64,000 nucleotides of DNA from an uncultured virus (IMG/VR IMGVR_UViG_3300033405_000010) (Duplodnaviria; Heunggongvirae; Uroviricota; Caudoviricetes). The stretch lies in IMG/VR virus record IMGVR_UViG_3300033405_000010; one strand, given 5' to 3'. Made by a program: the position numbers and the translations under genes. The stretch's first letter is position 1; every line of letters starts with the position of its first letter. Below are positions 7,728 through 45,160 of the stretch, piece by piece. The notes beneath the pieces were generated by a model. That model saw only the letters and a program-made list of their open reading frames with translations, was not told where the DNA came from and did no database searches.

Positions 7728-8171
7728 ATGCTCCGCGTCGTCCGTAAGTCGCCGAGGCTCATCGTCCGGCCCGTGCGACAAATGCCGCCACCCCGGGCCA
7801 ATCCCTGGACAGCGGCGGACACCGCGACGCTTACGGGCGGGCTTATTGGAGCCGCCCTTACGCTCGACGTCATGGACAAGGTCACGACGTACATGGCGAT
7901 GGAATACCCGGAGTTGTTCTACGAGAGCAACCCCATCATGGCGAAGACCATCGAGACGGTGGGGCTCCCGGTCGCGGTGTTCATTTGGGCCGTCCTTCCG
8001 CCGCTCGGGGCATGGGCGCTCACCGACTGGTCCGACCCGAAGCATAAGAGCCCCTGGCTCCGGCCGACGGTGTGGGGGATGATGGCCGTCTTCTACGCAT
8101 TTACCATCGGCTCGAACATCTTTCAGACGTTCCAGCCCCTGCCGGCACAAACCTCCCCGGCTCCGCAGTAA
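7728..8171 (+). CDS. Membrane protein (DUF5658-like)
   Basis: DKVTTY...YESNP motif with hydrophobic segments. Confidence 0.6.
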   Translation: MLRVVRKSPRLIVRPVRQMPPPRANPWTAADTATLTGGLIGAALTLDVMDKVTTYMAMEYPELFYESNPIMAKTIETVGLPVAVFIWAVLPPLGAWALTDWSDPKHKSPWLRPTVWGMMAVFYAFTIGSNIFQTFQPLPAQTSPAPQ

Positions 8172-8200
8172 ATAAATAACCCACCCGCCATCCGCCGGCG

Positions 8201-16483: not shown

Positions 16484-16504
16484 CGTCGGATGCCCTTCGG
16501 TTAT

Positions 16505-16669
16505 TTATTTACTCGCGTCGGGTTCAAAGTGCCCGCCCTTGCCGTCGCAGACGGCGCACTTCGCCATGTTGTACGTCTTCCCGTCCGCCCAGTAGGAGCG
16601 CACCTCCTTCTGCCCGTGGCAGTGCGAGCAGACGACCCATTTGCCCCGCTCGTCGGTGGCCTCGGTCAT
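16505..16669 (-). CDS. Small DnaJ-type zinc-finger protein
   Basis: Read by hand: CSHCHG...CAVCDGKG, 54 aa. Confidence 0.65.
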   Translation of the reverse strand: MTEATDERGKWVVCSHCHGQKEVRSYWADGKTYNMAKCAVCDGKGGHFEPDASK

Positions 16670-18036: not shown

Positions 18037-18327
18037 CTACGCGCTCCCCTTCCCGAGGTTGAGGAGCACCTGACGGGTACCCGGGTCTTTCGGGTCGAGC
18101 TTGAGCTTCTCGCAGACGTTCACGTACCGCTCCAGGTCCCACAGGTTCAGTTCGTTCGGCGGGGGTGCGTGCGTCTGCGCCGCCGACCGTGCCCTCTGCT
18201 CCTTGTCCGACTCGATGAAGTAGTCGATGGCCGGCTGCAAGATTTTCGCCAGGTCGCTCGCCTCGTTGGTCTTCACGGCCTGCACCAGTCGGGTCACCGC
18301 GTCCAACGTCTCGGTCGCTTCGCTCAT
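18037..18327 (-). CDS. Hypothetical protein
   Basis: Start MSEATET, coupled to the neighbouring gene. Confidence 0.65.
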   Translation of the reverse strand: MSEATETLDAVTRLVQAVKTNEASDLAKILQPAIDYFIESDKEQRARSAAQTHAPPPNELNLWDLERYVNVCEKLKLDPKDPGTRQVLLNLGKGSA

Positions 18328-18560
18328 GCTTGTGTGTTCACCTTCTTGGAAGGGGTTAGGAACTGACGGAGCTTGACCCGACACCCGTCGCACATATCGA
18401 GGTGCAGCGACGTGTTCGCGCACTCGATTCCGAGCTTGTCATCCTCGTCGCCGTACGGCCCCTCGAACTTGGGCAGCTTCCGGGACATGACCTCGACCTT
18501 GCGCGACTTCTCGACCTCGACGACCTTGCCGCAGATGTCGCAGCGGGTCAGTTGGGTCAT
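18324..18560 (-). CDS. Small zinc-binding protein
   Basis: CDIC...DMCDGC. Confidence 0.7.
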   Translation of the reverse strand: MTQLTRCDICGKVVEVEKSRKVEVMSRKLPKFEGPYGDEDDKLGIECANTSLHLDMCDGCRVKLRQFLTPSKKVNTQA

Positions 18561-18754
18561 GCCGTCACCACCTCGATTCGGACGATGGGTCGCATCGGCA
18601 TGAATGGGTTCCCGATGATGGTCAGCTTCTCCTCGAACTCGACCGTGACGGATTCCCCTTCCTTGACGGTCGGCGCGTCCCATCCGTTCTCCTGGTCCCG
18701 GGCCAACATCAACGGTGGCGAGTTCTCCCCCGTGAGCGTGACCTTCAGTTTCAT
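18557..18754 (-). CDS. Small beta-rich hypothetical protein
   Basis: MKLKVTLTGE..., ATGA overlap with the TROVE stop. Confidence 0.6.
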   Translation of the reverse strand: MKLKVTLTGENSPPLMLARDQENGWDAPTVKEGESVTVEFEEKLTIIGNPFMPMRPIVRIEVVTA

Positions 18755-20322
18755 GCTTCCGCCTCGGGTCGGGCGGAGGAAGGGGTTGGCGCGAGGTGGA
18801 ACCCGCGGACCTCGTCGAGCGCCTTCGGGCCGGCCTTCTCGCAGAGTCGAACGAAGTCCAGCACGCGGTCCGACCAGCCGCCGATGAGGACCGTCTTGGG
18901 GTCGTCCTGCGGCATCTGGGTCGTCCCGTAGCCGGTCAGGTCGAACGAGTAAAACCGCAGGTTCGGGTTGAGCTTGCGGCGGTACTCGCGGACCTGGTCG
19001 GCCACGGTGTGGCTGCTGACCTTGCCGTGGTCCCAGAGCGTCGCGTCGGGCGCGTCTGTTTCCGAAAAGCACTGCATGTCGCTGAACAGAAGCGCGCGGT
19101 CGAACTTCTCGTGCTCCTTGAGCGCCCACTCGAACACGCGGTATGCCATCGTCGACCGCTCACCGACCTCGGCCTTCTTGACGCGCTCCGCGTTCGTGAG
19201 GATGCCGTCCGTCGAGCGGAGGTGCACCACCGCCGCCTTCGACGCGAAGCCCAGGACCACGGAGTCGGCGCAGAGCTTGTGCGACATCGCCCCGAAGAGC
19301 GACGCGATGTCGATGGGCCAGACGTTCGAGAGCGTCGACATCGGCGTCGAGTTCATCGAGCCCGACAGGTCGCAGGCGATGAGCGTGCGGCCCGAGATGT
19401 CGCCGACGTTCTCGGTCGCCAGGAACATGGCGGTCTCAAGAGCGTCGAGGACGCGCGACGCCTTCGCCGAGTCGCTGTTCTCGATGGCCTTGTGGGCCGA
19501 CCAGAACCGGTACGGGAACTGCCGCGAGCGGGCGATGGCCTTCGGGTCCTCCAGCATCCGAACGACGTCCGAAACGTCGACCTTCTTCTCTAGGAGGTTG
19601 CGGAGGTTGCGGATGCGGGCCATGAAGCCCATCTCGGGCAGCACCTCGGTCCACGCCTCCTTGGTCGAGCCCTTGGCCGAGATGACCGTCTCCCAGGTCG
19701 TCGGGGTCTTGAGCGTGCGCTCGTGGATGCGCTTGAACAGCGCCTTCTCCTTGGCGCCCTTCGGCTTCGGGTGGGCGACGTTCATCACGTCGCGGAACTT
19801 GATGGCCGAGGAGTCACGGTCGTACTTGGCGAGGTCGTACTCCGTGAAGCGGTGGAAGCCGTCCGCCAGCGCACCGCGCAGCGAGCGCGGGAGGGCCCCG
19901 CCGAAACGGGCGTTCCAGTACGCGACAGCCTCCGTTAGCTCGTCGGCGCGGACGAGAATCTCCTTGGCGTACGCACGGGCGAACTTCCGAGCCTCCATCG
20001 AGTGGCACGACTCAACGAGCAGGGCCGTCGAGACCGAGCGGAGGTTCAGCACGTTGCGGCAGTAGCGCGCGAGCTGGAGCGGGAACTCGGCGTCGGTCTT
20101 GGCGACCTTCTCGACCAGGGCCGGGATGGCGACCCAGTCGCCCTTCGCCTCGGGGTCGTAGAACTTCGGCTCCCCGAACAGCGTAGACGCCGCACGGAGG
20201 TACAGCTCCATCGCGGGGTCAGTGGAGAACGCGAGGCCGCCCTCGTAGTTGAGGGTGGCCAGAGGGTGCTCCGCGGCCTTGCTCACCTTCGGCGTCTTCG
20301 CCGTCTTCCCGAACTTCGGCAT
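18751..20322 (-). CDS. rsr: Ro60/Rsr-like TROVE-domain RNA-binding protein with vWA domain
   Basis: NYEGGLAF, RADE, YDLAKY, HPKP, TWET, MARIRNLRN, SRQFPYRF; MIDAS DLSGS; FSDMQ; GGWSD. Confidence 0.93.
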   Translation of the reverse strand: MPKFGKTAKTPKVSKAAEHPLATLNYEGGLAFSTDPAMELYLRAASTLFGEPKFYDPEAKGDWVAIPALVEKVAKTDAEFPLQLARYCRNVLNLRSVSTALLVESCHSMEARKFARAYAKEILVRADELTEAVAYWNARFGGALPRSLRGALADGFHRFTEYDLAKYDRDSSAIKFRDVMNVAHPKPKGAKEKALFKRIHERTLKTPTTWETVISAKGSTKEAWTEVLPEMGFMARIRNLRNLLEKKVDVSDVVRMLEDPKAIARSRQFPYRFWSAHKAIENSDSAKASRVLDALETAMFLATENVGDISGRTLIACDLSGSMNSTPMSTLSNVWPIDIASLFGAMSHKLCADSVVLGFASKAAVVHLRSTDGILTNAERVKKAEVGERSTMAYRVFEWALKEHEKFDRALLFSDMQCFSETDAPDATLWDHGKVSSHTVADQVREYRRKLNPNLRFYSFDLTGYGTTQMPQDDPKTVLIGGWSDRVLDFVRLCEKAGPKALDEVRGFHLAPTPSSARPEAEA

Positions 20323-20380
20323 GGTTGCTTCCTTCCTACGGAAGAACTCATGTTACTAGTAGTATTAAAACAGTTGGAGT

Positions 20381-20462
20381 GGACGGGAAGAGCGGGGAGG
20401 GTGACTGCCCTTTCGGGCACTTTCTAGCAGGAAAGAAGTAACCCTCGCCCTATACCGCGTCC
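20381..20462 (-). ncRNA. Y-RNA-like unit 1
   Basis: 5' GGACGCGGUAUAG ... CUCUUCCCGUCC 3' helix with bulged C; UGCCC-GAAA-GGGCA hairpin; TTTTAGTA about 25-30 nt upstream. Confidence 0.75.
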
Positions 20463-20499
20463 GAACCGGAGTAGGACGCGACTAGTACTAAAACTTGGC

Positions 20500-20580
20500 G
20501 GACGGGAAGAGCGCACAGGGAGACTGCCCTTTCGGGCATCATCAGGAATTGGTGAAGTATCCCCGTGCTATACCGCGTCC
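20500..20580 (-). ncRNA. Y-RNA-like unit 2
   Basis: Same termini and GAAA hairpin; TTTAGTA upstream. Confidence 0.75.
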
Positions 20581-20611
20581 ACACCCTCCAGCGCGCACTA
20601 GTACTAAAGGT

Positions 20612-20681
20612 GGACGGGAAGAGCGAGCCCGGATGGTAGCGTCTCCTTTACGGGGAAGTATCCGAACCCTTTACCGCGTCC
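20612..20681 (-). ncRNA. Y-RNA-like unit 3
   Basis: Same terminal helix; GUAA tetraloop hairpin; TTAAAT upstream. Confidence 0.7.
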
Positions 20682-20711
20682 GCACGGCGATGGCGGTGCC
20701 CGATTTAAGGT

Positions 20712-20831
20712 GGACGGGAAAGGTGAGGAGGGTTTTTTTAGTGCTGCCTCAGCCAGCCCCGAAGGGCCGACGGGAATCGAACCCGCTTACTTTCTTTTTC
20801 AGAGAAGGAACCCGTCCTCTATACCGCGTCC
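20712..20831 (-). ncRNA. Y-RNA-like unit 4 with tRNA-like T-arm (YrlA-like)
   Basis: Same terminal helix; GCGGG-UUCGAUU-CCCGU arm at 20770-20786; cUUCGg hairpin. Confidence 0.78.
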
Positions 20832-20877
20832 GAAAAGAAGGAAGGGGTTGGTCTACTTAGAGGTTGGTGCGAGTCGC

Positions 20878-21207
20878 CTAGCTCTGCTTACTCAGCGGTG
20901 GGCCACCGAGTTCCGGCGGTGCCTTAGCGCCGGCGATGCCCAGCACCCATCCGACGTCCCGATTCGCCATCACGCCCGGGAGTCCTGGGAGCCTTCTCTT
21001 GTGGGCTACGAGGTTGATGATTTTCCCGTACGCCAGCTCCAGGCCCGCCAAAAGTGGGGCGAACTCGCGGTCGACCTTGGCCCCCCCGAGGTTGGAGTCG
21101 ACGAAGCTCTGAGCGACTTCCTCCATCGTCTCGTTCAGTTCCCAGAGCTTTTGGTAGAACAGATTGCCCTCCGCTGCGCCACGCTCGGCCGGCTCCATCG
21201 CGCTCAC
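20878..21207 (-). CDS. Hypothetical protein
   Basis: ORF coupled to the upstream RHH gene. Confidence 0.6.
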   Translation of the reverse strand: MSAMEPAERGAAEGNLFYQKLWELNETMEEVAQSFVDSNLGGAKVDREFAPLLAGLELAYGKIINLVAHKRRLPGLPGVMANRDVGWVLGIAGAKAPPELGGPPLSKQS

Positions 21208-21365
21208 CGCCTCTTGGCCCGACGTGCGTCCAGCGCCTCGCGGACCAGGGTGAGAACGACCCTGGTCATCGGGCGGTCCTCCTTTTCCGCGAGGGTCTGG
21301 ATTTGGCGCATGGCCTCGGCGTCGGGGTAGAAGGTGAGCATGTACTTCGCTGTGCTTTTCGCCAT
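21204..21365 (-). CDS. Ribbon-helix-helix protein
   Basis: Read by hand: YMLTFYPD...LAEKEDRPMTRVVLTLVREAL; GGAGGT upstream. Confidence 0.7.
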   Translation of the reverse strand: MAKSTAKYMLTFYPDAEAMRQIQTLAEKEDRPMTRVVLTLVREALDARRAKRR

Positions 21366-21375
21366 CGACTACCTC

Positions 21376-22116
21376 CTAGTCGCCGCCCTCCTTGCGGCGG
21401 GCGGCGGCCACCTCCTCCGGTGTGTGAGACTGCTGCTCGTGCTCTCGGGTCAGTTCCTCGGTGTCCGTTCCGTAGCCGCAGACGGGGCAGTCGTACCACT
21501 TGCCCTTCGGGTCGGGCAGACTAAGCGTGTTCCCGTTTGAGTGCAGGGCGACGGGGTGCAGTTGGGCCAGGGCTTTAGGGACGGCCCTCGTCACCATGTG
21601 GTCTTCCTCGGAGACTCGACCGGCTATCGCAACGACGCGGTTGAGGCTCTTCCGCCGCAGTTCCAGGTAGTCCGACAGGCTCAGCTTGTGGTAGCGTGGC
21701 TCCTCGATGAAACTGTTGCCCTCTGCGGCGACCGCGGGTATCCCGTTCTCGCCGATGTTCTGCACGAAGATGTCGAACTGTACGGGGGCGGAGGTGCGGT
21801 TGTCGATTTCGTCGAGTTGGTCCTCGCCGTTGTGGACGCGGAACCAGTAGAGGGCCGCTATCATCCACCGTCGAATCTCGCCGTTCATCGCGTACGCCGT
21901 CCCGCGGTCCCGGAAACCGTCGGGATTCATCCCGGCCAGCCTCATCACCTCGGACATCGTCGGGTTCTTCCCTTGCTCGAAGACGAGTATTCGAAGCTGC
22001 CGGTAGAAGTTCCTCTGCTTCGCGCGCCTCGGTCCCCGGAAGCCGAGCCTTCGGAGGTACGTGTTCAGCGATTGCTTTCGGATTTCGTCGTCCGCGGGGA
22101 TGTCGGCGGCGCTCAT
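21376..22116 (-). CDS. Hypothetical protein with C-terminal C2H2 zinc finger
   Basis: CPVC...HEQQSH. Confidence 0.7.
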   Translation of the reverse strand: MSAADIPADDEIRKQSLNTYLRRLGFRGPRRAKQRNFYRQLRILVFEQGKNPTMSEVMRLAGMNPDGFRDRGTAYAMNGEIRRWMIAALYWFRVHNGEDQLDEIDNRTSAPVQFDIFVQNIGENGIPAVAAEGNSFIEEPRYHKLSLSDYLELRRKSLNRVVAIAGRVSEEDHMVTRAVPKALAQLHPVALHSNGNTLSLPDPKGKWYDCPVCGYGTDTEELTREHEQQSHTPEEVAAARRKEGGD

Positions 22117-23189
22117 GCTCCGCTCCCCGCGCCGCTCGCCAGGGCCTTCCGCTCGTTGTGGTCCTCGCCCCATCGCTTGACGTTCGCGGGGTCACGCCCG
22201 GCGCGGGCGGTCGCTAGGAGCGCCTGCCCCGCCTCGTAGAGGATGTCCACGGCCTGGGCCCGGGCCTTCGGGTCGTAGAAGGTCTCCAGGTACGTCGCGT
22301 CGAGCTTGCGCGCCATCTCCGCCAGCGCCGTGGCACGGTTCAGCCGGGCCTGGTCGCCCCGGATTTCCCAGGAGATTTGCTTCGACACCTTGCCCTTGTC
22401 GACGAACGCCTTCGCGTCCTCCATCTCGCCCTCGATGACCTTGTCGCTCGCCCGCTCGTCGTCCACTCGCTTCTCGGCGGCCCGAGCGATGCCCTCCGCG
22501 ACCTGCTCCTTGTGCTCGGCCGGGGCGCGCTGGACGAGCGTCACCGCGTCCTCCAACCGGGCCGCGGTCAGTCCGCCGCTGCTCCGGGCCTTGGCGAGCA
22601 CCCGCGCCGCCTTCGGCGAGTCCTTGAGGATGCGGCCGACCTTGACCGTGTCCTTCGGGGACAAATGAGCGATGGCGCTCATTTTCTCGGCGGCCCGCGT
22701 CTCGTGCGCCTGGATGTACTCGCCGAGCGTCTTCTGCGGGATTCCGAAGTCCCTCGCCATCTGCCGGACGCCGCCCTTGTTCCCCGCGCCCGCGCCGACC
22801 TTGCTGTGCTTGTAGTCCTGCTCGAAAATCTTCCCGAGGGCCTCTTCCTTCTCCTCCGCCGTCATCTCCAACCGGTGGAGGTTCTCGACCATCGAGTACC
22901 GGCGCATCTCCCGGTCGTCGAGCGGACGCACGATGACCGCGACCTTCGACGCCTTTCCCATCTTCAGGCCGAGCAGGCGCCGACCGCCGAAGGCCACCTC
23001 GTAGTTCCCGTCCTTCGGACGGACCATGATGGGCGAGAGCACGCCGTCCTTCCGGATGGACTCGGCCATGTCCTTGATTTTCAGTTGGTCGGGCTGGTCC
23101 TCGGGACGGTCGGCGGTCTTCCTCGGGTTGAACGGGTTCGGTCGCAGTCGGCTAATTGCTACCTCTTGATACTTTGCGCTTGCGCTCAT
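22113..23189 (-). CDS. ParB/Spo0J-like protein
   Basis: NPFNPRK, GVLSPIMVR, FGGRR, ENLHR, HTH-like segment. Confidence 0.9.
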   Translation of the reverse strand: MSASAKYQEVAISRLRPNPFNPRKTADRPEDQPDQLKIKDMAESIRKDGVLSPIMVRPKDGNYEVAFGGRRLLGLKMGKASKVAVIVRPLDDREMRRYSMVENLHRLEMTAEEKEEALGKIFEQDYKHSKVGAGAGNKGGVRQMARDFGIPQKTLGEYIQAHETRAAEKMSAIAHLSPKDTVKVGRILKDSPKAARVLAKARSSGGLTAARLEDAVTLVQRAPAEHKEQVAEGIARAAEKRVDDERASDKVIEGEMEDAKAFVDKGKVSKQISWEIRGDQARLNRATALAEMARKLDATYLETFYDPKARAQAVDILYEAGQALLATARAGRDPANVKRWGEDHNERKALASGAGSGA

Positions 23190-23278
23190 GCTGCACCTAC
23201 CCGTGCCATTAAATTACATGCACTTAAGGGCTATGCCCTGCCGCTGTTTATATATGACGGCCTCCCATCCGGGCGGCG

Positions 23279-23560
23279 ATGACGCGGAAGGCGGCCGTAC
23301 CGGACGAGTGCCAGCGGCTCCTGAACGACATTCAGCAGCGCGGAAAGGACCTGAGTCACTTGGCTTGGGACCTCAGCCATGAGGCTTACATCGTGGCTCA
23401 CGGCGACATCGACTGGCCGGCCGTCAAGTCGGCGGGCGAAATCGCCGGGGCGGACGCGCGCTTCAAGAGTAAGCTCGCCACCGTCCAGAGGAAGTTCGAC
23501 GTCCTTGCGCGCGACTGGGCCCGCCTCTTGGCGGCCATCGAGAGGAAGGTCACGAAGTAG
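23279..23560 (+). CDS. Hypothetical protein
   Basis: ORF about 25 nt after TTTATATA. Confidence 0.65.
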   Translation: MTRKAAVPDECQRLLNDIQQRGKDLSHLAWDLSHEAYIVAHGDIDWPAVKSAGEIAGADARFKSKLATVQRKFDVLARDWARLLAAIERKVTK

Positions 23561-23948
23561 TCGGCTCCTCGGCTCCAGGACTGGACTCGAAGTACTCGCG
23601 GAGGTCGCCCAGTGACACCGCGACGACCATGTCGCGCGGGATGCCGAGGTAGGTGAGGCGAATCCATCCGAGCCACTGTGCCGTAGGGGCGGCGGTGCCG
23701 GCCTGGCGGATGACGAGAATGGGAACCTTGCCCTCCTTCTCCGCGCGCTGCTCGGTGGTGCGGTAGAGTTCGAGGATGGACGCGAGCGTCCTGGGGACGT
23801 GCTTCCCTTTCTTCATCTCGAAGTAGAGCCGCTTGTGGAGCGAGTCGCTCCGCGTTTGCTTCGAGTTGCCGCCCGAGAGCGGGGTGCGCGTCGTGCCGAA
23901 GAACTTGGCGAGGACCTGCTCGCCCTTCTTCCAGGTGGACTTGTGCAC
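23550..23948 (-). CDS. Holliday junction resolvase-like PD-(D/E)XK nuclease
   Basis: WKKGE...RTPLSGG...SD...FEMK. Confidence 0.75.
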   Translation of the reverse strand: MHKSTWKKGEQVLAKFFGTTRTPLSGGNSKQTRSDSLHKRLYFEMKKGKHVPRTLASILELYRTTEQRAEKEGKVPILVIRQAGTAAPTAQWLGWIRLTYLGIPRDMVVAVSLGDLREYFESSPGAEEPTTS

Positions 23949-23955
23949 GCCGCCC

Positions 23956-25325: not shown

Positions 25326-25435
25326 GCTGATTCTACCTTCTGGCGCCCTCGGCGCTCAGACAACCTAAGGCGGGGCATAGATAAATAAATATCGCAGGGG
25401 GAAAGGGTTGGCCTGACGGGCCTTCCAGCAGGGCC

Positions 25436-29658: not shown

Positions 29659-31076
29659 CCGACCTCCCGGCGGACCTGAAGCCTCTCATCCTCTGTGGGC
29701 ACGTCATCGACGTACTCCGCTCCCTGCCCGAGAAGTCCGTTCAGTGCGTCGTGACGAGCCCGCCGTACTGGGGGCTCCGCGCGTACGGGACCGAGCCGCA
29801 GGTGTGGGGCGGGGACGCGGAGTGCCAGCACCGATGGCTGGACCCGATTCCCGGTGACGCGAAGGGCGGGTCCGGAACGCCGACCGACAAGAACAATCGC
29901 GGCGAGGACTACGCTCGGGGTTCCGAGCGCGGCGCCTTCTGCGCCTGCGGTGCGTGGCGGGGCGAGTTCGGCCTCGAACCGACTCCCGAGCTATACGTCG
30001 CCCACACGGTCGAAATCTGCCGAGAGATTCGGCGCGTCCTCCGTGACGATGGTGTGATGTGGTGGAACCTGGGCGACTCGTACTTCGCCACCGGCGGGGG
30101 CCAGAAGGACGTGGGGAAGGCGGCCTACTCCCCGGGCGACCGGCCGAGGAAGCACGCGACCCTCAAGCCGAAAGACCTGGTGGGCATCCCGTGGCGGGTC
30201 GCCTTCGCGCTCCAGGACGACGGGTGGTGGCTGCGCTCGGACGTCGTCTGGTCGAAGAACAATCCCATGCCCGAGTCGATAACGGACCGCCCGAGCCGGG
30301 CGCACGAGTACATCTTTCTCCTCACGAAGAGCGAGAGGTATTTCTACGACCAGGACGCCGTGCGGACGGCCCTCGCCCAATCCACCGTGAGGGAAGTCGC
30401 GCAGGGCTACAACGGCACGGCGACCAAACTCTACGAGGGGACGGGGGCCCAGGACCCGAGCGAGACCAAGAGCCGCATCATCGCCAACATGCAACGGAAG
30501 CAGGACGCCCTCGGCAAGAACACGTACACCGGGTTCAACGACCGATACGTCCCGCCGGAGTCCGGCGCGAACTTGCGGACGGTCTGGCAGGTCCCGACCC
30601 AGCCCTACAAAGAGGCGCACTTCGCCACCTTCCCCGAGGAGATTCCTCGGCGGTGCATCCTGCTCGGGACGAGCGAGAAGGGATGCTGCGCCAAGTGTGG
30701 GGCGCCGTACGAACGGGACGTCGACGTCAAACGGCCCGAGGGGTACATGGAGTCGTACGAAGACGTCGACGACTCCTACCTCGACAACAGCGGACGTCGC
30801 GGGGGCTGGGAGCCGAGGACCCTCTCATCCATCTACGGGACGTCCACGGCGACGAAGCGCGAGACGAAGGGATGGTCGCCGACGTGCTCCTGCGAAGCCT
30901 CCGAGCCGACGCCCTGCATCGTACTCGACCCATTCGCCGGCTCTGGTACGACGATGACCGTGGCTCGCGGCCTCGGCCGTCGCTCCATCGGGGTCGAGTT
31001 GAAGGATGAGTACGTGAAGATGGCGCGCAGGCGGTGCTCGGCCGACGTGCCCGACCTCATGTCCTTCAGTGCGTAA
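29655..31076 (+). CDS. DNA methyltransferase, N4/N6 beta class with Cys-containing insertions
   Basis: TSPPYW, HFATFP, LDPFAGSGTT. Confidence 0.93.
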   Translation: MTDLPADLKPLILCGHVIDVLRSLPEKSVQCVVTSPPYWGLRAYGTEPQVWGGDAECQHRWLDPIPGDAKGGSGTPTDKNNRGEDYARGSERGAFCACGAWRGEFGLEPTPELYVAHTVEICREIRRVLRDDGVMWWNLGDSYFATGGGQKDVGKAAYSPGDRPRKHATLKPKDLVGIPWRVAFALQDDGWWLRSDVVWSKNNPMPESITDRPSRAHEYIFLLTKSERYFYDQDAVRTALAQSTVREVAQGYNGTATKLYEGTGAQDPSETKSRIIANMQRKQDALGKNTYTGFNDRYVPPESGANLRTVWQVPTQPYKEAHFATFPEEIPRRCILLGTSEKGCCAKCGAPYERDVDVKRPEGYMESYEDVDDSYLDNSGRRGGWEPRTLSSIYGTSTATKRETKGWSPTCSCEASEPTPCIVLDPFAGSGTTMTVARGLGRRSIGVELKDEYVKMARRRCSADVPDLMSFSA

Positions 31077-31108
31077 GTATTTATTTATCACATGCTCTAG
31101 CACCGGCG

Positions 31109-32180: not shown

Positions 32181-32358
32181 GGCTCCTCAGGTAGATAAAT
32201 AATCGGACTCAGGTCGCGCGGTGCCGCGAGACCGATGTCCAGGGCCGGTGCTTCTGAACGTGCACGCGCCATCCGTACTTGGTGGTCCGAATCCACCGAT
32301 GGCAGTAGCGGCAGTATCGGGTCTTTACCGGGTGCTCCGACTTGACGGCGCCCATCGG

Positions 32359-35567: not shown

Positions 35568-35592
35568 GGTTTCACCTTAAATAAATAGTGGG

Positions 35593-36547: not shown

Positions 36548-36591
36548 GGTTCCTCCATATTGGACATGGGTTCTGACATATATAAATATGC

Positions 36592-37625: not shown

Positions 37626-37645
37626 GATTAGGCTCAGGTAGCGTG

Positions 37646-37658
37646 ATATATAAATAGG
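37646..37658. promoter_or_regulatory. Bidirectional TATA-like element between the NADAR and ART-like genes
   Basis: ATATATAAATAGG, the only AT-rich island in the spacer. Confidence 0.65.
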
Positions 37659-38467: not shown

Positions 38468-38541
38468 GGGCGCGTCGCATAGTGGTCTTGCTCCAGCCTT
38501 ATAAGCTGACGTAGACGCGAGTTCGATTCTCGCCGCGCCCA
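38468..38541 (+). tRNA. tRNA-Ile(UAU)
   Basis: GGGCGCG/CGCGCCC acceptor; loop CT-TAT-AA; TTCGATT T-loop. Confidence 0.85.
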
Positions 38542-38554
38542 TTCGCATCGCAAC

Positions 38555-38625
38555 GGGCCCGTCGTCTAACGGCAGGACACCATTCTGATAAATTGGAGAA
38601 GGGGGTTCGACTCTCCCCGGGCCTA
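38555..38625 (+). tRNA. tRNA-Ile(GAU)
   Basis: Cloverleaf; loop CT-GAT-AA; one U-U pair in the anticodon stem. Confidence 0.85.
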
Positions 38626-38675
38626 CCTCTCCATCGACCTAGGGCTCAAATAGCGTCAACCGGGTGGAGGAGACG

Positions 38676-39284
38676 ATGTCGTCGGCTGTTGATACGCCCG
38701 GCGGGGGAGCGGGGGAGAGGGCCGTTGTTTCGCCCGGGCCCAGCCTGGCTGCAAAGGGGAACGTGAGTGCCCATCTGAACCTCGTGTGCCGTGACGCGGA
38801 CGGTAAGGTCACGAGCACGTTCGACAAGGAGTGCGACATGACGCTGCTCCAGTCGGCGCAGTTCTTTGTCGTCAGCCAGCTCAACGTCTCCGGGCTGTCC
38901 TTCAAGGACACGAGCGGGGCGTCGCACGCGCAGACCGCGCAGGTCCTCGCGGGCACCCCGGCCATCGCGTTCGGCACGAACGGCACCGCGGCGACGTGGT
39001 CCGACTACGTCATCGGCACGTCGGCCGGCGGCGCCACCAACCCGGTCGGCGCCTCCGTCACGGCCATCGTCGCGGGCGGCGCGAGCGGTACGTTCACCGT
39101 CACCGCGACCTGGAACAACACCACGGCCGGAACCGTCACCATCACCGAGCTTGCCCTCTACATCACGACGACGGCGGGCATGGCGAGCAACTCGACCTTC
39201 GCCATCACCCACGACGTCTTCACGGGTCAGGCCGTCTCCGCGAGCGGAACCGCCGCGGCGACCCTCACCTACACCTGGAGCTGA
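38676..39284 (+). CDS. Putative virion protein (Thr/Ala-rich, beta)
   Basis: GGAGG upstream; TITELALY, TLTYTW. Confidence 0.7.
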   Translation: MSSAVDTPGGGAGERAVVSPGPSLAAKGNVSAHLNLVCRDADGKVTSTFDKECDMTLLQSAQFFVVSQLNVSGLSFKDTSGASHAQTAQVLAGTPAIAFGTNGTAATWSDYVIGTSAGGATNPVGASVTAIVAGGASGTFTVTATWNNTTAGTVTITELALYITTTAGMASNSTFAITHDVFTGQAVSASGTAAATLTYTWS

Positions 39285-39286
39285 AC

Positions 39287-39589
39287 ATGCCGCACAAGGC
39301 CATCCCCGCAGAAGCCCCGAGCCTCCCCCCCGAAGCGTGGACCGGTTCGGCCCCCGCCCCAGTCGACGGCGCCACCGGACGGAAGTTCGCGTGGACGAAG
39401 GTCGCGGGGACGGCGGTCGCCGCGACCCAGACCGAGGACGGCTCCATGAAGGGCAAGGCGATTTGGCGCATCACTGCCGACTGCCCGAAGTGCTCGGACA
39501 CCATCTCCATCATCGGCTCGACGGAGCACGGCGACGCCCCGGTGCGTTGCTACTGCTCTCCCGCGCGCGTCTTCCTGGTGACCTGGTGA
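39287..39589 (+). CDS. Small zinc-ribbon protein
   Basis: CPKC...CYC. Confidence 0.6.
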   Translation: MPHKAIPAEAPSLPPEAWTGSAPAPVDGATGRKFAWTKVAGTAVAATQTEDGSMKGKAIWRITADCPKCSDTISIIGSTEHGDAPVRCYCSPARVFLVTW

Positions 39590-39590
39590 G

Positions 39591-39947
39591 ATGGCTTACA
39601 ATCCGGACTTCCAGCAACTGTTCCCGGGCTCCGAGGAAGACTACATCGGTCTTCCGCCGGACTCCACCGGCAAGAAGATGCGAACGCGGCTGTGGATTAT
39701 CTTCGACCCTGTCGTGGGCGCCTACAACTACGAGGAGGCCGAGGTCGTTCACCTCGGCGACCCGAACGCGCCGAACAACCTCGCCTACGTCAGCAACCTG
39801 GGCGAGCTTCACGTCGACCCGTACCAGCAGCGGGCGATGCAGGAGGAGATTTTCCTCACGCAGTTCGACCGACGTTACACAGAGGATGTGGTCAAGGTTC
39901 AAAAGGCCCGGGAGTATCTCCGGACCGGGACGTCCATTCGACGGTGA
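39591..39947 (+). CDS. Hypothetical protein (virion-associated?)
   Basis: LPPDSTGKKMRT motif; within a structural-like operon. Confidence 0.7.
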   Translation: MAYNPDFQQLFPGSEEDYIGLPPDSTGKKMRTRLWIIFDPVVGAYNYEEAEVVHLGDPNAPNNLAYVSNLGELHVDPYQQRAMQEEIFLTQFDRRYTEDVVKVQKAREYLRTGTSIRR

Positions 39948-39958
39948 GGTGGTGAAAG

Positions 39959-40618
39959 ATGGTTCTAGCGGAAGGCGTCGTTGGTGAGCAGCAACTGGGC
40001 ATCGGTTCTCCGGGCGCGGCCCGTATGGACCAGCAGGGCGGCGTCGTGGCCGCGAACGACCACGGATGGCGCTTCACCGGCAACTACAACAACCGTCTCT
40101 ACACGGTGGCGAACCAGTCCGTGCAGGCGCTGACCCTCATCGGCGCGACGACGTACACCGGGCTCGCGCTCTGGAATCCCCCGGGGTCCGCGGTCATCGC
40201 GTCCGTCGACGAGTGCACGGTCAACGTGGCGACGCTGCCCACGGCGGCGGCCGCCATCCTGCTCTTCGAAATCACGAGCACCCCCTCCGCGTTCACCACG
40301 GCGCAGGTCACCTACGCCGCGAAGGTGCAGCCGTCCATCCAGGGCTCGTCCAACGCCTCGAAGTGCGCTGGCTACACGGCCCTCACCCTGGCGGCGGCCC
40401 CCGACGCTGCCACCGCGCCCATCATCCGGGCGCTCGCGTCCTACCTCGGCGTGACCACGGACGCCACCTCCATCCAGGGCGTCGTGACGAAGGCCATCGA
40501 GGGCAGCATCATCCTCGAACCCGGCACGGGCGTCGGCATCGTCGCCGCCACCACCGCCATCACCGTCATCGGGTCGTTCACCTGGGAAGAACTGCCCCTC
40601 TCCATCTACCCCGGATAG
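39959..40618 (+). CDS. Putative virion protein, paralog A
   Basis: TGLALWNPPGS, IILEPGT, FTWEE. Confidence 0.8.
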   Translation: MVLAEGVVGEQQLGIGSPGAARMDQQGGVVAANDHGWRFTGNYNNRLYTVANQSVQALTLIGATTYTGLALWNPPGSAVIASVDECTVNVATLPTAAAAILLFEITSTPSAFTTAQVTYAAKVQPSIQGSSNASKCAGYTALTLAAAPDAATAPIIRALASYLGVTTDATSIQGVVTKAIEGSIILEPGTGVGIVAATTAITVIGSFTWEELPLSIYPG

Positions 40619-40630
40619 GGAGGACGAGAC

Positions 40631-41293
40631 ATGGTGCTGGTCGAGGGCGTCGTTGGCGAACAACAGCTTGGCATCGGTTCGCCCGGTGCGTTCCGTCTCG
40701 ACCAGCAGGGCGGCATCATCTACGTCAACGACCACGGGATGCAGTTCACCACGAACTACAACAACCGTCTCTTCAACGTCGCCCATCAGGCCGCGACGGC
40801 GTTATCGCTGGCGTCCACCACGACGTACACCGGGCTCGCGCTCTGGAATCCGCCGGGGTCCGCCGTCATCGCATCGGTCCTGGAGGTCACGGCCACGGCG
40901 AACGCGATGCCAGCCGCCGCCGCCCTCATCGTCCTGTTCGAAATCACGACAACCCCTACGTTCGGCACGGCGGTGGTGACCTACGCCTCGAAGGTCCAGC
41001 CCAACATCCAGGGCTCGTCGAACGCCTCGAAGTGCGCTGCCTACGCGGGACTGACGCTGACCACGGGCGCGAACCCTGGAACGGCGACGGCCCCCATCAT
41101 CCGGGGAGTGCAGTCCTACCTGGGCATCACGACCAACGAGACGGAGCTTCAGGACAACGCGACGAAGGCGCTCGATGGCTCCATCATCCTGGAGCCCGGA
41201 ACGGGCGTCGGGATGGTCGCGGTCACCACGGCGGTCACCGTCTTCGGGTCTTTTACGTGGGAAGAGCTACCCATCTCCATCTTCCCCGGGTGA
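40631..41293 (+). CDS. Putative virion protein, paralog B
   Basis: Full-length tandem duplicate of 39959-40618. Confidence 0.8.
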   Translation: MVLVEGVVGEQQLGIGSPGAFRLDQQGGIIYVNDHGMQFTTNYNNRLFNVAHQAATALSLASTTTYTGLALWNPPGSAVIASVLEVTATANAMPAAAALIVLFEITTTPTFGTAVVTYASKVQPNIQGSSNASKCAAYAGLTLTTGANPGTATAPIIRGVQSYLGITTNETELQDNATKALDGSIILEPGTGVGMVAVTTAVTVFGSFTWEELPISIFPG

Positions 41294-41298
41294 GCAAC

Positions 41299-41532
41299 AT
41301 GGCGGAGCGCGAGATACCAGAGGGCGACATCCAACGGACGCAGACGGTCGTCTTCACGAAGCTCGGCCCCGGCCGCTACCGTTTCGCCGTCCGCGGCGAC
41401 TTCTCCTCCGAGGAGTTGACCTTCGCGCTCGACCAGCTCAAGGCGGTGCTCCAGGGCGTGGCGACCCACGTCGGACGGACCTCCACCACGCTCGCCCCGA
41501 CGGTCGAGCCACCCCCGGCCGCCACACATTAG
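41299..41532 (+). CDS. Hypothetical protein
   Basis: Start MAEREIP; typical codon bias. Confidence 0.55.
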   Translation: MAEREIPEGDIQRTQTVVFTKLGPGRYRFAVRGDFSSEELTFALDQLKAVLQGVATHVGRTSTTLAPTVEPPPAATH

Positions 41533-41552
41533 CGCCTCGGAGGTAGACTCCG

Positions 41553-43931
41553 ATGGCGGATGCGTGGAAAATCTGGGACCTCACCGGCTATGAGTACTTC
41601 GTCAGCGGCGCGGAGTTCGTAGCCGAGGTCGGAGTCGCCTACGCGGGGGCCCGTGGGGTCGGCACCGAGCTAATCGCCGAGACCTACAGCCTCGTCGTCT
41701 CCGAGAAACCTACCGGCGTCGAACTCGTCAGCGAAACCGGCGTTTCGGTCACGTCCGAGAAGCCCACCGGCGCGGAGCACGTAGCCGAGGCCGGCGTCTC
41801 GGTCACGTCGGAGAAGCCCACTGGCGCCGAGCACGTTGCTGAATCCGGCGTATCCGTCACCTCTGAGGTAGTCGTCGGCGCGGAGCACGTAGCCGAGGCC
41901 GGCGTTTCGGTCACGTCGGAGAAGCCCACCGGCGCGGAACACGTCGCCGAAACGGGAGTCTCTGTCACGTCGGAGAAACCGACGGGTGCTGAGCACGTCG
42001 CGGAGGTCGGCGTTTCGGTCACCTCCGAGGCCCCTACTGGCGCAGAGCACGTAGCCGAGACCGGCGTCTCCGTCACGTCGGAGAAGCCCACTGGCGCGGA
42101 ACACGTCGCCGAGGTGGGGGTCTCGGTTACGTCGGAGGCGCCCACCGGCGCGGAGCACGTCGCCGAAACGGGCGTCTCGGTGACGTCGGAGAAGCCCACC
42201 GGCGCGGAACACATCGCGGAGACGGGTGTCTCCGTCACGTCGGAGAAACCGACGGGTGCTGAGCACGTCGCGGAGGTCGGCGTTTCGGTCACCTCCGAGG
42301 CCCCTACTGGCGCAGAGCACGTAGCCGAGACCGGCGTCTCCGTCACGTCGGAGGTTGTCGCCGGTGCGGAGCACGTCGCTGAGGCCGGCGCGGCTATCGG
42401 CAAGAACCCGGTCACCGGGACCGAGCAGGTCTCCGAGACCGGGGTCTCCGTCACGTCGGAGAAGCCCACCGGCGCGGAGCAGGTTTCTGAGACCGGCGTT
42501 GCCATCGGCACGTCGGTCGTTTCCGGTGCGGAGCATGTCGCGGAATCCGGCGTCTCCGTCACCTCGGAGAAGCCGACCGGAACGGAGCAGGTCTCCGAGA
42601 CCGGGGTCTCGGTCACGTCGGAGAAGCCGACGGGAGCCGAGCACGTCGCCGAGGTCGGTGTCTCGGTCACCTCGGAGGTAGTCACCGGGGCGGAGGCCAT
42701 CACTGAGACGTCCTACGTGGTGGTATCGGAGAAGCCGACCGGCACCGAGCAGGTCCAGGAGACGTTCAGCATCGTCTACTCTCAGGCCGTCCAGGGGACC
42801 GAGACCGTCTACGAGACGGGCGTGGCCGGCGCCGGGTTCAAACCGGTCGGCGAAGAAGCGGTCAACGTACACGGTGTCATCACGACCAGCATCGGCCTGC
42901 CCGTACTGGAAATCGTCGGCGAGGCGGGGGTCGTCTTCGTCCCGTCCCGCCCGACAGGCGCCGAGGCGGTCGCCGAGGTCGCAACCTCCCAAGTAGTCAT
43001 CCCCGTCACGGGGGCCGAGGAGGTCCAGGAAACCGGCACCGCCTTTGCCGGGGCGGTCGCCACCGGCACGGAGGCCGTCTCCGAGACCTTCGAACTCATC
43101 GTCTCCGAGTATCCGAAGGTCTCCGAGTTCGTCACGGAGTTCGGGCGCGCCGTCGCATACGGCGCGGCCACCGCCTACGGCCGCATCGCCGAGGTCGTCG
43201 GCCTGACGGTCTCCGGCCCGGTCTCCGGCTCCGGCACCATCTTCGAGTCGGGCATCGTCCAGACCGGTCACTTCGTCACCGGCACGGAGGCCGTGGATGA
43301 GGTTGCGAGTCTGAAGGTCGCCAGCGGAATCGCCGGCGCGGAGGCCATCCTCGACGCGGCGAATCTCGTGGTCTCCGTCCGGCCCGCTGTGCAGGGCACG
43401 GTCGGAGAGACCGCGACGCTCGTCGTCGTGAACCCGCCCCGACCCTCGGGCGGAGGCGGTGGAGGCGGTGGCTACTACCCCTACCAGTACGACCGGTGGC
43501 CCGCCGAGACCCAGGCGTACTTCGACCAGACCATCGGCAACATGGAACGCTCCTACGTCAAGCGGAACTACCCGCCGGCGTACATCCTGGTCCAACCCCC
43601 CGAGCAGGCGGTCTCCGAGGCCATCGCGTTCGCCGAGCCGCCCACGGCCATGCCAGCCGTCAGCGGAACGGCCATCCCGACGTGGGCGATTGCGCTCGCG
43701 GGTGTCGCCGTTGGCGCCGCGGCCACCATCGGAATCCTGTGGGCCGCCTCGCGCTGGAACTTCGGGCCGCGCCCTCGCCCGCAGCCACCTGAGGGCCCTG
43801 CGCCGCGGCCACTCCCTCCCAGGACGAACCCACGGAAGAAGCGCCGCCCGCGGGGCCGGCGGGCTCGGCAAGCCCTTCCGAAGGTCGCGCTGAAGCGGCG
43901 CAGGTCTTATCAGACCGGAGCCGGATGGTAG
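41553..43931 (+). CDS. Membrane-anchored 18-aa tandem-repeat stalk protein
   Basis: About 20 conserved EKPTGAEHVAETGVSVTS repeats; C-terminal TM helix and basic tail. Confidence 0.85.
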   Translation: MADAWKIWDLTGYEYFVSGAEFVAEVGVAYAGARGVGTELIAETYSLVVSEKPTGVELVSETGVSVTSEKPTGAEHVAEAGVSVTSEKPTGAEHVAESGVSVTSEVVVGAEHVAEAGVSVTSEKPTGAEHVAETGVSVTSEKPTGAEHVAEVGVSVTSEAPTGAEHVAETGVSVTSEKPTGAEHVAEVGVSVTSEAPTGAEHVAETGVSVTSEKPTGAEHIAETGVSVTSEKPTGAEHVAEVGVSVTSEAPTGAEHVAETGVSVTSEVVAGAEHVAEAGAAIGKNPVTGTEQVSETGVSVTSEKPTGAEQVSETGVAIGTSVVSGAEHVAESGVSVTSEKPTGTEQVSETGVSVTSEKPTGAEHVAEVGVSVTSEVVTGAEAITETSYVVVSEKPTGTEQVQETFSIVYSQAVQGTETVYETGVAGAGFKPVGEEAVNVHGVITTSIGLPVLEIVGEAGVVFVPSRPTGAEAVAEVATSQVVIPVTGAEEVQETGTAFAGAVATGTEAVSETFELIVSEYPKVSEFVTEFGRAVAYGAATAYGRIAEVVGLTVSGPVSGSGTIFESGIVQTGHFVTGTEAVDEVASLKVASGIAGAEAILDAANLVVSVRPAVQGTVGETATLVVVNPPRPSGGGGGGGGYYPYQYDRWPAETQAYFDQTIGNMERSYVKRNYPPAYILVQPPEQAVSEAIAFAEPPTAMPAVSGTAIPTWAIALAGVAVGAAATIGILWAASRWNFGPRPRPQPPEGPAPRPLPPRTNPRKKRRPRGRRARQALPKVALKRRRSYQTGAGW
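41670..42760 (+). repeat. 54-bp coding tandem repeat
   Basis: Recurrent GAGAAGCCCACCGGCGCGGAGCACGT-like units. Confidence 0.9.
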
Positions 43932-43946
43932 GCCGACGGAGCCCTG

Positions 43947-44723
43947 ATGCCGACCATAACAAATTGGGCCGTTGGGTCGAGTGACACCGGAACGACAAGC
44001 GTTGACATCACCTGCACCACCGGGGAGTCGGTCTACGTCTTCGTCGGCGGCGACGCGACCGGAGGCATCGGCCCGAGCGCGGTCACGGACGACCAATCGC
44101 CGCCCAACGTCTACACGCGCATCGACGGAAGCAACATCCAACAGGGCACCAGCACCGTCTGCCTCTTCGCGTACTACTGCGACAACGTCCAGTGCCCCGG
44201 GGGCAGTCTCAACGTCACCGTGACGATGGGTGCGCTGAACTTCACGGGCATCGTGTCCGCCGCCGCCCTCAGCGGGACCGTCACCCCCTCCCTCGATGCG
44301 TTTGCCCTTTCCACAAGGATGACGGGGACCGGCGCTGTCCAGGCCATCGGCCCGTGCGACCTCGGCATTACCCAGGGCGGCGAACTCGCCTTCGTCTTCG
44401 CTGTTGCCGGCGACAGTGCCGCGTTCCTGCCCGGCGCTCAGACCCTCTCTCCACCGCTCACCGGCGGGACCGAGGTGATGGACACGGATGCGAACGGTTT
44501 TTACGACCTCGTTGTCGCGTACGACCCGAACCCAATTCCCGGGAGGATGGCCTACAACGGCACCTCGAACGAGGGCGCAGCGAATGGCGTCGTTCAGATG
44601 ATGGGCGTGAGCATCATGGGCCCGCCAGTCGTCGCCGGCACGACCAACACGAACCCGCTCTCCTACTACGGCTACTCCCCCGAGACGATGTTCGGGTTCC
44701 GGCAGGAGCCGACCGAAGGGTAG
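43947..44723 (+). CDS. Beta-rich putative virion/adhesion protein
   Basis: 258 aa, Gly/Thr-rich. Confidence 0.65.
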   Translation: MPTITNWAVGSSDTGTTSVDITCTTGESVYVFVGGDATGGIGPSAVTDDQSPPNVYTRIDGSNIQQGTSTVCLFAYYCDNVQCPGGSLNVTVTMGALNFTGIVSAAALSGTVTPSLDAFALSTRMTGTGAVQAIGPCDLGITQGGELAFVFAVAGDSAAFLPGAQTLSPPLTGGTEVMDTDANGFYDLVVAYDPNPIPGRMAYNGTSNEGAANGVVQMMGVSIMGPPVVAGTTNTNPLSYYGYSPETMFGFRQEPTEG

Positions 44724-44828
44724 CACCCATTAAATCCCGGGACGCGCGTAGCGGATTCGCCATGCGGTTCGGGCGAACGCGATGTACTACCTGTCCCGGC
44801 ACACCGGGTCGGTAGACCATTCGCCCCT

Positions 44829-44903
44829 GCCGCTCTAGTTCAATCCGCAGAATCCCGGTCTTGTAAATCGGGGATGCCGGTTCAAATCCGACGAGCGGCT
44901 CCA
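44829..44903 (+). tRNA. tRNA-Thr(UGU), CCA encoded
   Basis: Cloverleaf; loop CT-TGT-AA. Confidence 0.88.
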
Positions 44904-44904
44904 T

Positions 44905-44975: not shown

Positions 44976-44976
44976 T

Positions 44977-45047: not shown

Positions 45048-45054
45048 CTCACAT

Positions 45055-45125: not shown

Positions 45126-45160
45126 CTATATTTATATATCGGAGAGACCTAATCGTCTCT

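Follow-up and report, generated by a model that had tools for sequence, protein, structure and literature searches.

What are the four short, structured units that lie directly upstream of a Ro60/TROVE protein gene in IMG/VR record IMGVR_UViG_3300033405_000010, and in what kind of cell would they work? The record, filed as an uncultured virus of the Caudoviricetes, was analysed as one stretch of 64,000 nucleotides (hereafter the window). A preliminary description had read the units as individually promoted Y-RNA-like genes of an archaeal virus, with a Ro60-binding helix of a non-canonical kind. Our analysis suggests, with a probability that we put at about 0.8, that the four units are divergent Y RNAs of the Yrl type (YrlA/YrlB), one being of the YrlA type and three being short. 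They are not a new RNA class; the system is a familiar one, and what is new is its likely archaeal setting.

The Ro60 gene and its four RNA units

The Ro60/TROVE gene (18751..20322, minus strand) encodes a protein of 523 amino acids that contains a vWA domain with the DxSxS metal-site motif, here DLSGS, which aligns with DVSGS in the Ro60 of Thermus phage phiLo. The protein matches the Pfam TROVE (3.2e-28) and vWA_Ro60 (5.8e-8) domains and the PHROGs family phrog_850, 'RNA-binding protein' (3.6e-47). Its nearest relative in the PDB is phiLo Ro60 (9KOP/9L5Y, E 5.7e-34); weaker matches, which include the Xenopus and human Ro60, are to Deinococcus radiodurans Rsr (2NVO, 7.7e-8), 9NEN (1.6e-5) and 1YVP (1.3e-4). 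Against the NCBIfam equivalog of bacterial Rsr (NF041674) the protein scores 46.1 bits, the cutoff being 900 bits. To judge from these scores, it is a member of the family and not an ortholog of bacterial Rsr at the equivalog level.

The four units, 70-120 nt in length, occupy the Ro60 strand 59-509 nt upstream of the gene: unit 1 at 20381..20462 (82 nt), unit 2 at 20500..20580 (81 nt), unit 3 at 20612..20681 (70 nt) and unit 4 at 20712..20831 (120 nt), all on the minus strand. Every unit begins with GGACGCGGUA and ends with UUCCCGUCC. The exact 10-mer GGACGCGGTA occurs four times in the 64 kb, solely at the four unit starts, and TTCCCGTCC occurs nine times against 1.43 expected, four of these occurrences being at unit ends. 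In minimum-energy folds the terminal helix of all four consists of GGACG/CGUCC, an unpaired C6 and GG/CC, that is, 7 bp with one bulged C. This helix is part of a common scaffold (5 bp, the unpaired C6, 2 bp, and an internal loop of 4 nt on the 5' side and 6 nt on the 3' side) that continues into a helix of 9-10 bp, then UACUUC or UCCUUC, and then a variable interior. The fold energies of units 1, 2 and 4 lie well below those of shuffled sequences (z -3.7, -3.8 and -2.7).

The interiors differ from unit to unit. Units 1 and 2 have two hairpins each, one of them GCCC-GAAA-GGGC, unit 3 has a single small hairpin, and unit 4 (-47.2 kcal/mol) has a reduced tRNA-like domain. In unit 4 the Yrl scaffold surrounds a small hairpin, a T-arm (GCGGG-UUCGAUU-CCCGU, with a 5-bp stem and the loop UUCGAUU), a 6-bp UUCG hairpin and a mini D-like hairpin (GCUG-AGG-CAGC); a search of the unit with the Rfam tRNA model gave no match at E<=10. 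GAAA, GUAA(A) and UUCG loops are all present in the units. The positions and common ends, the terminal helix with its one bulged C, the tetraloops and the T-arm of the preliminary description were thus all found in the sequence.

A protein-guided scan of metagenome contigs yielded two close relatives, L011 and L012, whose Ro60 is 87% identical to that of the window and which we count as one lineage because they are identical across the RNA region. All four units recur in L012, ends included, and the tRNA-like one again comes first, but the counterparts of units 2 and 3 are swapped. The spacers between the units have diverged, except for an A/T-rich box before each unit. Orthologous units differ by 1-2 nt in length (82/81, 81/83, 70/69 and 120/118 nt for units 1 to 4, window/L012) and carry compensatory changes. 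In the ortholog of unit 1 (L012 2857-2937) an upper-helix G-C pair has become A-U and the hairpin GCCC/GGGC has become GUCC/GGAC, so that GCCC-GAAA-GGGC, the hairpin type of units 1 and 2, reads GUCC-GAAA-GGAC in this one ortholog; that of unit 2 (2635-2717) has two compensatory pairs, and that of unit 3 (2749-2817) has an upper-helix change from A-U to G-C. The ortholog of unit 4 lies at 2479-2596. When the six short units are aligned, the terminal helix is invariant and six of the nine upper-helix pairs are altered on both sides; 94.8% of the cells pair, a value that none of 500 shuffles matched, with 46-67% in slid registers. Four of the peat-metagenome runs that contain the stretch were assembled, and these gave one co-occurring variant with the L012-type unit order and no new variants.

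Covariance models and the relation to Yrl RNAs

Covariance models connect these units to RNAs at many other TROVE loci. Model R1 was built from the six short units of the window and the L012 lineage, R2 from the rows of R1 plus two of its distant TROVE-locus matches, and R3 from 30 matches of R2. MAFFT alignments with the long units misplaced the 3' strand (A2 and A6, not used for models), and alignment A5, which held one partial and one antisense match, was left out. The E-values of the three models are rough, and some sources are the same contig in two collections.

R1, with unit 4 left out of its training, recovers unit 4 over its full length (44.6 bits, E 6e-8). It also matches, weakly, the sequence immediately before three distant TROVE genes (proteins 27-32% identical), where the layout is the same: NGNCG, an unpaired base, two pairs, a 4-nt loop, a 9-bp helix and UACUUC, with a GCUC..UUC loop and then the closing strand on the 3' side. 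R2, which scores units 1, 2 and 3 at 71.6, 77.8 and 76.2 bits, gives 40 matches at E<=1 over 50 sources, Acidimicrobiia genomes among them; all are on the TROVE strand and nearly all are upstream of the gene. In the 30 aligned R2 matches, 13 of 16 pairs are changed on both sides and 91.9% of the cells pair against 40-53% when the register is slid, a comparison favoured by the alignment being model-fitted. R3, in which unit 4 scores 54.1 bits, gives 118 matches at E<=0.1 in 38 of 51 sources (the 30 training rows included), every one of them on the TROVE strand, with six copies at each of the loci L005, L032 and L046 and five at L028. Of the 13 sources that lack an R3 match, most extend hardly or not at all upstream of the gene, the exceptions being HGTV-1 and phiLo; the flank of the phiLo gene contains a scaffold match with R2 (31.4 bits) and none with R3 at E<=0.1. 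As a specificity control, a 2.3-Mb Acidimicrobiia chromosome was searched with R3, and its three matches at E<=0.01 all lie directly upstream of the TROVE gene.

The attachment of Y-RNA-like genes to a Ro60 gene is thus supported both by the Pfam TROVE match and by the covariance links to other TROVE loci. The scan of other TROVE loci with a model of the units, proposed in the preliminary description, did find the same scaffold, but in a class that is not new. Scans of viral contigs with simple patterns were less informative: an exact end-to-end pattern hit four loci, which we regard as chance (interiors unlike those of the units, 17-23 bits with R1), and a looser 5' pattern hit 23 loci, likewise attributed to chance, none scoring better than E 0.26 with R1.

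The scaffold can be compared with that of Yrl RNAs position by position, using a motif placement that rests on the Rfam consensus and the family alignment. Yrl RNAs have a 5' motif, GNCGAAN0-1G, within the stem formed by their ends (PMC4201824), and a conserved YUAY/UA after the second helix (PMC4201824; bioRxiv 10.1101/312249, 23UA24). The Rfam consensus, seen through one full-length YrlA alignment, has a terminal helix with gGCGAAUG, an internal loop, a second helix and CUA. Positions 2-8 of our units read GACGCGG, which keeps G2, N, C4, G5 and G8 of the motif and replaces its AA by a bulged C and a paired G. Outside the window lineage the unpaired position 6 is A in 13 cases, U in 5, C in 3 and G in 1 (n=22), and position 7 of the scaffold pairs and covaries. 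UACUUC or UCCUUC follows the second helix in 8/8 units of the lineage and in 30/30 aligned relatives, and the UA at nucleotides 23-24 of YrlA (bioRxiv 10.1101/312249) corresponds to the UA at 23-24 of unit 1. Unit 4 has its arms in the published V-T-AS-D order (PMC4201824), with the D arm much reduced; its T-arm and this order support the view that it contains a tRNA-like module as in YrlA. Each position of the helix that had been called non-canonical, on the other hand, has its counterpart in the Ro-binding module of the Yrl RNAs beside many bacterial and phage TROVE genes: the position of the bulge is kept and the base is not.

Several results weigh against the Yrl assignment. The Rfam YrlA model (RF02553, gathering threshold 69 bits) accepts none of the units and nothing else in the window; its best match there, 16.4 bits to unit 4, covers model positions 31-62, the T and AS parts. 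The Rfam Y_RNA model gives no match at E<=10 in 19800-21400 and none at its gathering threshold in the window, and the window together with 20 TROVE loci yields only tRNA at gathering thresholds, with no YrlA and no Y_RNA. The Infernal search suggested for the locus therefore came out negative with both models. Unit 3 taken alone folds no better than shuffled sequences (z -0.6), the D-like arm of unit 4 is minimal (a 4-bp stem and a 3-nt loop), the close covariation comes from a single relative lineage, and full tRNA calls lie within at least two R3 matches (L032 586-713 and L079 2271-2412). Finally, the 5' internal loop is UA(U/A/C)A in 8/8 units of the lineage, and CGAA, found in 11 of 22 relatives, occurs in 0/8. 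To judge from the sequence, this loop is the real peculiarity of the lineage. The CGAA motif is said to aid protein contact in the phiLo Yrls (PMC12135203), and its absence here could therefore serve to map the RNA features that Ro60 reads.

When the Rfam YrlA model is applied by E-value to the loci of the relatives, it gives nine matches of 27-41 bits (maximum 41.4), all below the gathering threshold. Seven of the nine are nested in R3 matches, the YrlA model covering the tRNA-like core and the scaffold covering the flanking stems. Tandem Yrl-type arrays of four to six adjoin bacterial and phage TROVE genes (L005, L028, L032, L046, L003, L016 and L079), mostly interleaved with tRNA arrays, and none reaches the Rfam YrlA gathering score; truncated tRNA matches that lack the acceptor stem lie in or near some such arrays (L026 2771-2833, L016 2708-2764). 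Most TROVE genes of this clade are thus accompanied by Yrl-type arrays that fall short of the Rfam YrlA gathering score, and the annotation of these arrays could therefore be improved. Since tandem arrays of four to six such RNAs are common, the four copies in the window are not special. Of the earlier idea of four interchangeable effector modules, the difference between the interiors stands; the copy number is ordinary.

Promoter-like boxes, alternative readings and host

In both the window and L012, an A/T-rich box ends 21-23 nt upstream of G1 of each unit. The boxes are strong for units 1 and 2 (TTT(T)AGTACTAGT) and weak for units 3 and 4. Before unit 1 the box TTTTAGTACTAGT (20481..20493, minus strand; also found before L012 units B and D) has its end 18 nt upstream of the unit, and before unit 2 the box TTTAGTACTAGT (20597..20608, minus strand) has its end 16 nt upstream. 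The weak A/T box of unit 3, CCTTAAAT (20703..20710, minus strand), lies 21 nt upstream, with CTTAAGAA before L012 unit C, and that of unit 4, TCTAAGTA (20854..20861, minus strand), lies 22 nt upstream, with TTCAAGTA at the same spacing in L012. The Ro60 gene has a box of its own, TTTTAATACTACTAGT (20355..20370, minus strand), about 32 nt before its ATG, and L012 has ATTAAATACTAGT in the matching place. One box class, TTTARTACTAGT, is common to units 1 and 2, L012 units B and D and the Ro60 gene, which suggests co-regulation. The heptamer TACTAGT occurs seven times against 0.68 expected, four of them within the Ro60-RNA locus. Elsewhere in the window, nine A/T boxes end 18-23 nt before the ATG of an open reading frame (ORF) of at least 60 amino acids, mostly without a Shine-Dalgarno (SD) sequence. 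As far as sequence can tell, such spacing suits an archaeal TATA box upstream of a leaderless mRNA and not a bacterial -10 box, which lies about 7 nt from the start. Independent transcription of at least two units is plausible on this evidence. That all four are individually promoted, as first proposed, is supported by a promoter-like box before each unit and is weakened by the poor boxes of units 3 and 4.

It is possible, though doubtful, that the four RNAs are instead cut from one precursor, which might run into the Ro60 mRNA. In both genomes units 3 and 4 have weak boxes, no unit is followed by a hairpin-plus-U terminator, and YrlA and YrlB of Mycobacterium smegmatis are processed from one precursor (PMC4201824); however, the TTTARTACTAGT box has been kept at constant spacing at all five of its sites while the spacers diverged, the spacing is that of the other promoters in the window, and runs of 3-4 T follow several units. 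Much less probable is a role of the units as cis-acting structures of the Ro60 mRNA leader, such as autoregulatory decoy sites, rather than as free RNAs. Their position on the same strand and directly upstream, with the last unit ending 58 nt before the ATG, would suit such a role, but at other loci the homologous units can be as far as about 2 kb upstream, flanked by tRNA genes, or on the downstream side of the gene (phiLo, Atuin), the order of the units is shuffled between close relatives, and a separate promoter-like box stands between unit 1 and the ATG. Least credible of all is a reading of the units as coding sequence, or as repeats with no relation to Ro60, even though a 121-codon ORF with a TTG start crosses units 2-4 on the opposite strand. 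The length differences of 1-2 nt between orthologs and the shuffled unit order exclude a protein-coding reading, and the compensatory helix changes, the confinement of all 118 model matches to the TROVE strand and the chromosome-wide control, with matches only beside the TROVE gene, argue against both variants. We therefore retain the reading of the units as Y RNAs of the Yrl type.

The DNA that carries the locus is a mobile element and probably, though not certainly, a virus; its genes include DNA methylases, ParB, RecT, a primase-helicase, an SNF2 helicase, an RNA ligase and 17 tRNAs. On the sequence evidence the host is probably archaeal. A release-factor gene matches the aRF1 equivalog at 314 bits (NCBI cutoff 234.7) and acVLRF1 at 37 bits, the nearest Atlas clusters are mostly archaeal, and the top viral relative of the window Ro60, the best of 106 phage records with a Ro60 match, is in HGTV-1 (33% identity). 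In addition, the genes for tRNA-Gln (two genes), tRNA-Val and tRNA-Met begin with A1:U72, which we take to be the mark of archaeal tRNA-Gln.

The same Ro60-Y RNA module might, on the other hand, be carried by a bacteriophage or plasmid of a high-GC peat bacterium, an actinobacterium or acidobacterium for instance, and this we consider unlikely, though it deserves serious attention. Several observations that count against an archaeal host speak for it: SD-like leaders precede many ORFs of the window, its proteins are not acidic (the isoelectric point of Ro60 is 8.8), and loci with homologous RNA arrays are mostly bacterial or phage (Acidimicrobiia, actinophages), with such arrays also in Streptomyces and Arthrobacter phages. 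The nearest cellular TROVE genes are in Acidimicrobiia and other bacterial metagenome-assembled genomes (28-32% identity), the GC content is 65%, and the release-factor-like protein has weaker Pfam matches to the bacterial baeRF/acVLRF1 families. Against a bacterial host stand the aRF1 score above its cutoff with the low acVLRF1 score, the nine A/T boxes that mostly lack an SD sequence, and the first rank of HGTV-1 together with the archaeal Atlas clusters. An archaeal host remains the one we favour, and for the archaeal virus of the preliminary description the aRF1 gene, the box geometry and HGTV-1 make a plausible case that falls short of demonstration. A PHROGs search of 47 window ORFs found no capsid, portal, terminase, structural or packaging family, and 'virus' itself is therefore unproven. 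Two further points weigh against the overall reading of the locus: the six runs that contain the stretch are all peat-metagenome DNA runs, with no RNA run among them, and HGTV-1, the sole confirmed archaeal virus with a related Ro60, gives no significant model match.

The Ro60/TROVE gene of HGTV-1 is gp129. The stretch before it has GGAUACUUC and a layout similar by eye, yet scores 5-8 bits. It is intergenic (L001 2835-2943) and follows a TTTAAGTA box, and its UGCGAGGGAGUCGGAUACUUC ... CCGACUUCC resembles the Yrl scaffold by eye; R1 gives 5.3 bits and R2 7.6 bits with filters off, R3 gives no match, and the minimum-energy fold did not yield the expected scaffold, so that this candidate was set aside as a lead only. 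A haloarchaeal host of the salt-in type was rejected because the proteins are non-acidic; the stretch was, moreover, found in peat samples. A tblastn search with the primase-helicase gave bacterial phage matches only, at less than 33% identity, and is uninformative on the host. The release-factor gene has no phage match and no relative in viral contigs, and a megablast search of 12 kb of the window against phages gave no match.

Around the Ro60 gene, two small ORFs follow on the same strand. A 65-codon ORF (18557..18754, minus strand), whose ATG overlaps the Ro60 stop codon as ATGA, belongs to no known family and has a counterpart in L012 with about 85% identity; a 78-codon ORF (18324..18560, minus strand), again with an ATGA overlap, belongs to no known family either and is conserved in L012. 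Through these overlaps the two are translationally coupled to Ro60, and they are candidates for further components. The Ro60 leader contains a short hairpin, CUUCC-GUA-GGAAG (window 20323-20350, minus strand), with CCUUC-GGA-GAAGG at L012 2975-3000, and these hairpins overlap the SD-like GGAAGGAAG or GGAGAAGGA. On the other side of the array, the adjoining gene in L012 is a homolog of window 23580-23954. A ParB gene (22113-23189) and the ORFs 21376-22173 and 20878-21207 lie in between in the window only (20878-23579), so that the conserved Ro60-RNA module is bounded on its left by the box of unit 4.

A recurrent promoter-like A/T box, TATTTATTTA or TATATAAATA, is present at 14 sites of this 65% GC window: 8167-8180, 16500-16513, 23208-23257, 25377-25393, 31074-31090, 32192-32204, 35576-35589, 36576-36590, 37644-37657, 45125-45140, 52644-52659, 58141-58154, 59155-59171 and 60477-60494. 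The nine boxes mentioned above as ending 18-23 nt before an ATG are of this type and suggest leaderless transcription units of archaeal type. Two paralogous leaders at 59155-59215 and 60477-60540 (plus strand) consist of a strong A/T box, cuuGCCCGUGAGGGC or cuuGCCCGAAAGGGC, GGAGAGAAA and ATG, and their GCCC-GNRA-GGGC hairpin is that of Y-like units 1 and 2. The 17 tRNA genes form three clusters (38468-48864); 14 of them are confirmed by Rfam and none has a suppressor anticodon. Among the clusters lies the RNA ligase gene (45258-46340; Pfam RNA_ligase, phrog_24030). The aRF1 gene (51482-52609, minus strand) contains an in-frame TGA. Its ATG at 52609, preceded by an SD-like GGGAGG, is followed by 27 codons and a TGA at 52526-52528, and the conserved body with the NIKS and GGQ motifs begins directly past this TGA. 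There is no ATG, GTG or TTG between the TGA and the Met at 52369, and adding the sequence beyond the TGA lifts the TIGR03676 score from 246 to 314 bits. TGA ends seven of 17 confident window genes and is therefore a normal stop codon. The arrangement may represent readthrough-dependent autoregulation like that of bacterial prfB, or a pseudogene.

Proposed function and comparison with known systems

The Y RNAs of D. radiodurans and Salmonella use their stem to bind Ro60, which they tether to polynucleotide phosphorylase (PNPase; PMC4201824), and phiLo Ro60 binds two Yrl RNAs and forms complexes with the host PNPase (PMC12135203). We picture the locus as a Ro60-Y RNA module, carried by a mobile element that is probably a virus of a peat archaeon, in which the four units would be transcribed as separate small RNA genes of the Yrl family. 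The 5' and 3' ends of each RNA pair into the succession of helix, bulge, helix, internal loop and helix that makes up the Ro60-binding module of the family, and through which Ro60 would presumably be bound. By analogy with Deinococcus, Salmonella and phiLo, the RNA would sit on the outer face of the Ro60 ring, where its inner module would tether or gate other factors; four different inner modules would therefore make four kinds of Ro60 particle. To our knowledge, a PNPase partner is not expected in most archaea. In an archaeon that lacks PNPase the partner might be, as a guess, the exosome or tRNA-handling enzymes.

Of particular interest, if tentative, is the possibility that these are the first Y RNAs working inside an archaeal cell, where a viral Ro60 would be served by four adaptor RNAs under one dedicated archaeal-type promoter class and would act with archaeal machines. 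If this is true, the Ro60 ring would be coupled to machines that have no bacterial equivalent, with the exosome in place of PNPase; the tRNA-like unit 4 would provide a link to RNase P, CCA-adding or tRNA-modifying enzymes, and each RNA would define a distinct particle. Ro60-Y RNA particles have been described in animals, bacteria and phages, and the Ro60 genes of archaeal viruses and Borgs have been noted without partner RNAs. What this locus offers is a set of concrete, testable RNA candidates in an element that is probably archaeal; their ends are defined and their motifs can be mutated.

Like the metazoan Ro60-Y RNA particles, the window locus combines a presumed ring protein of TROVE and vWA domains with RNAs of 70-120 nt that have a terminal helix with a bulge in the 5' strand. 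It differs in that the Rfam Y_RNA model finds no match and the protein match is distant (1YVP, E 1.3e-4). The Rsr-Yrn1-PNPase complex of D. radiodurans (PMC4201824) offers a functional working model, in which an exonuclease is held at Ro60 by the Y RNA, which also gates the ring; Yrn1 itself belongs to a separate lineage. HGTV-1, the Asgard 'Nidhogg' viruses (bioRxiv 10.1101/2021.07.29.454249) and Borgs (PMC9605863, PMC11208441), all archaeal viruses or extrachromosomal elements, likewise carry a Ro60-like gene. For the Ro60 genes of these archaeal elements, we found only the protein and no partner Y RNAs described in the excerpts of the literature.

The phiLo system (PMC12135203) is also a virus-encoded Ro60 with adjacent Y-like RNAs, Yrl1 and Yrl2, and has the closest solved protein. 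It differs in having two RNAs, the CGAA motif and a bacterial host, and in that its RNA binding and PNPase complexes are experimental, whereas the window locus is known from its sequence only. The closest counterparts of the RNAs are YrlA and YrlB (RF02553; PMC4201824), which likewise have a Ro60 gene as a same-strand neighbour, an end-pairing helix, whose 5' motif the window units keep in part, and, after a second helix, a UA at about nucleotides 23-24. Their loci too hold at least two RNAs, one with T, AS and D-like arms and the others short hairpins (PMC4201824), and the covariance models tie the window units to loci whose RNAs match YrlA. The window units differ from YrlA and YrlB in their scores below the gathering threshold, the sequence G-A-C-G-C-G-G, the UANA loop and the minimal D-like arm, and also in boxes of archaeal geometry and a host that is probably archaeal.

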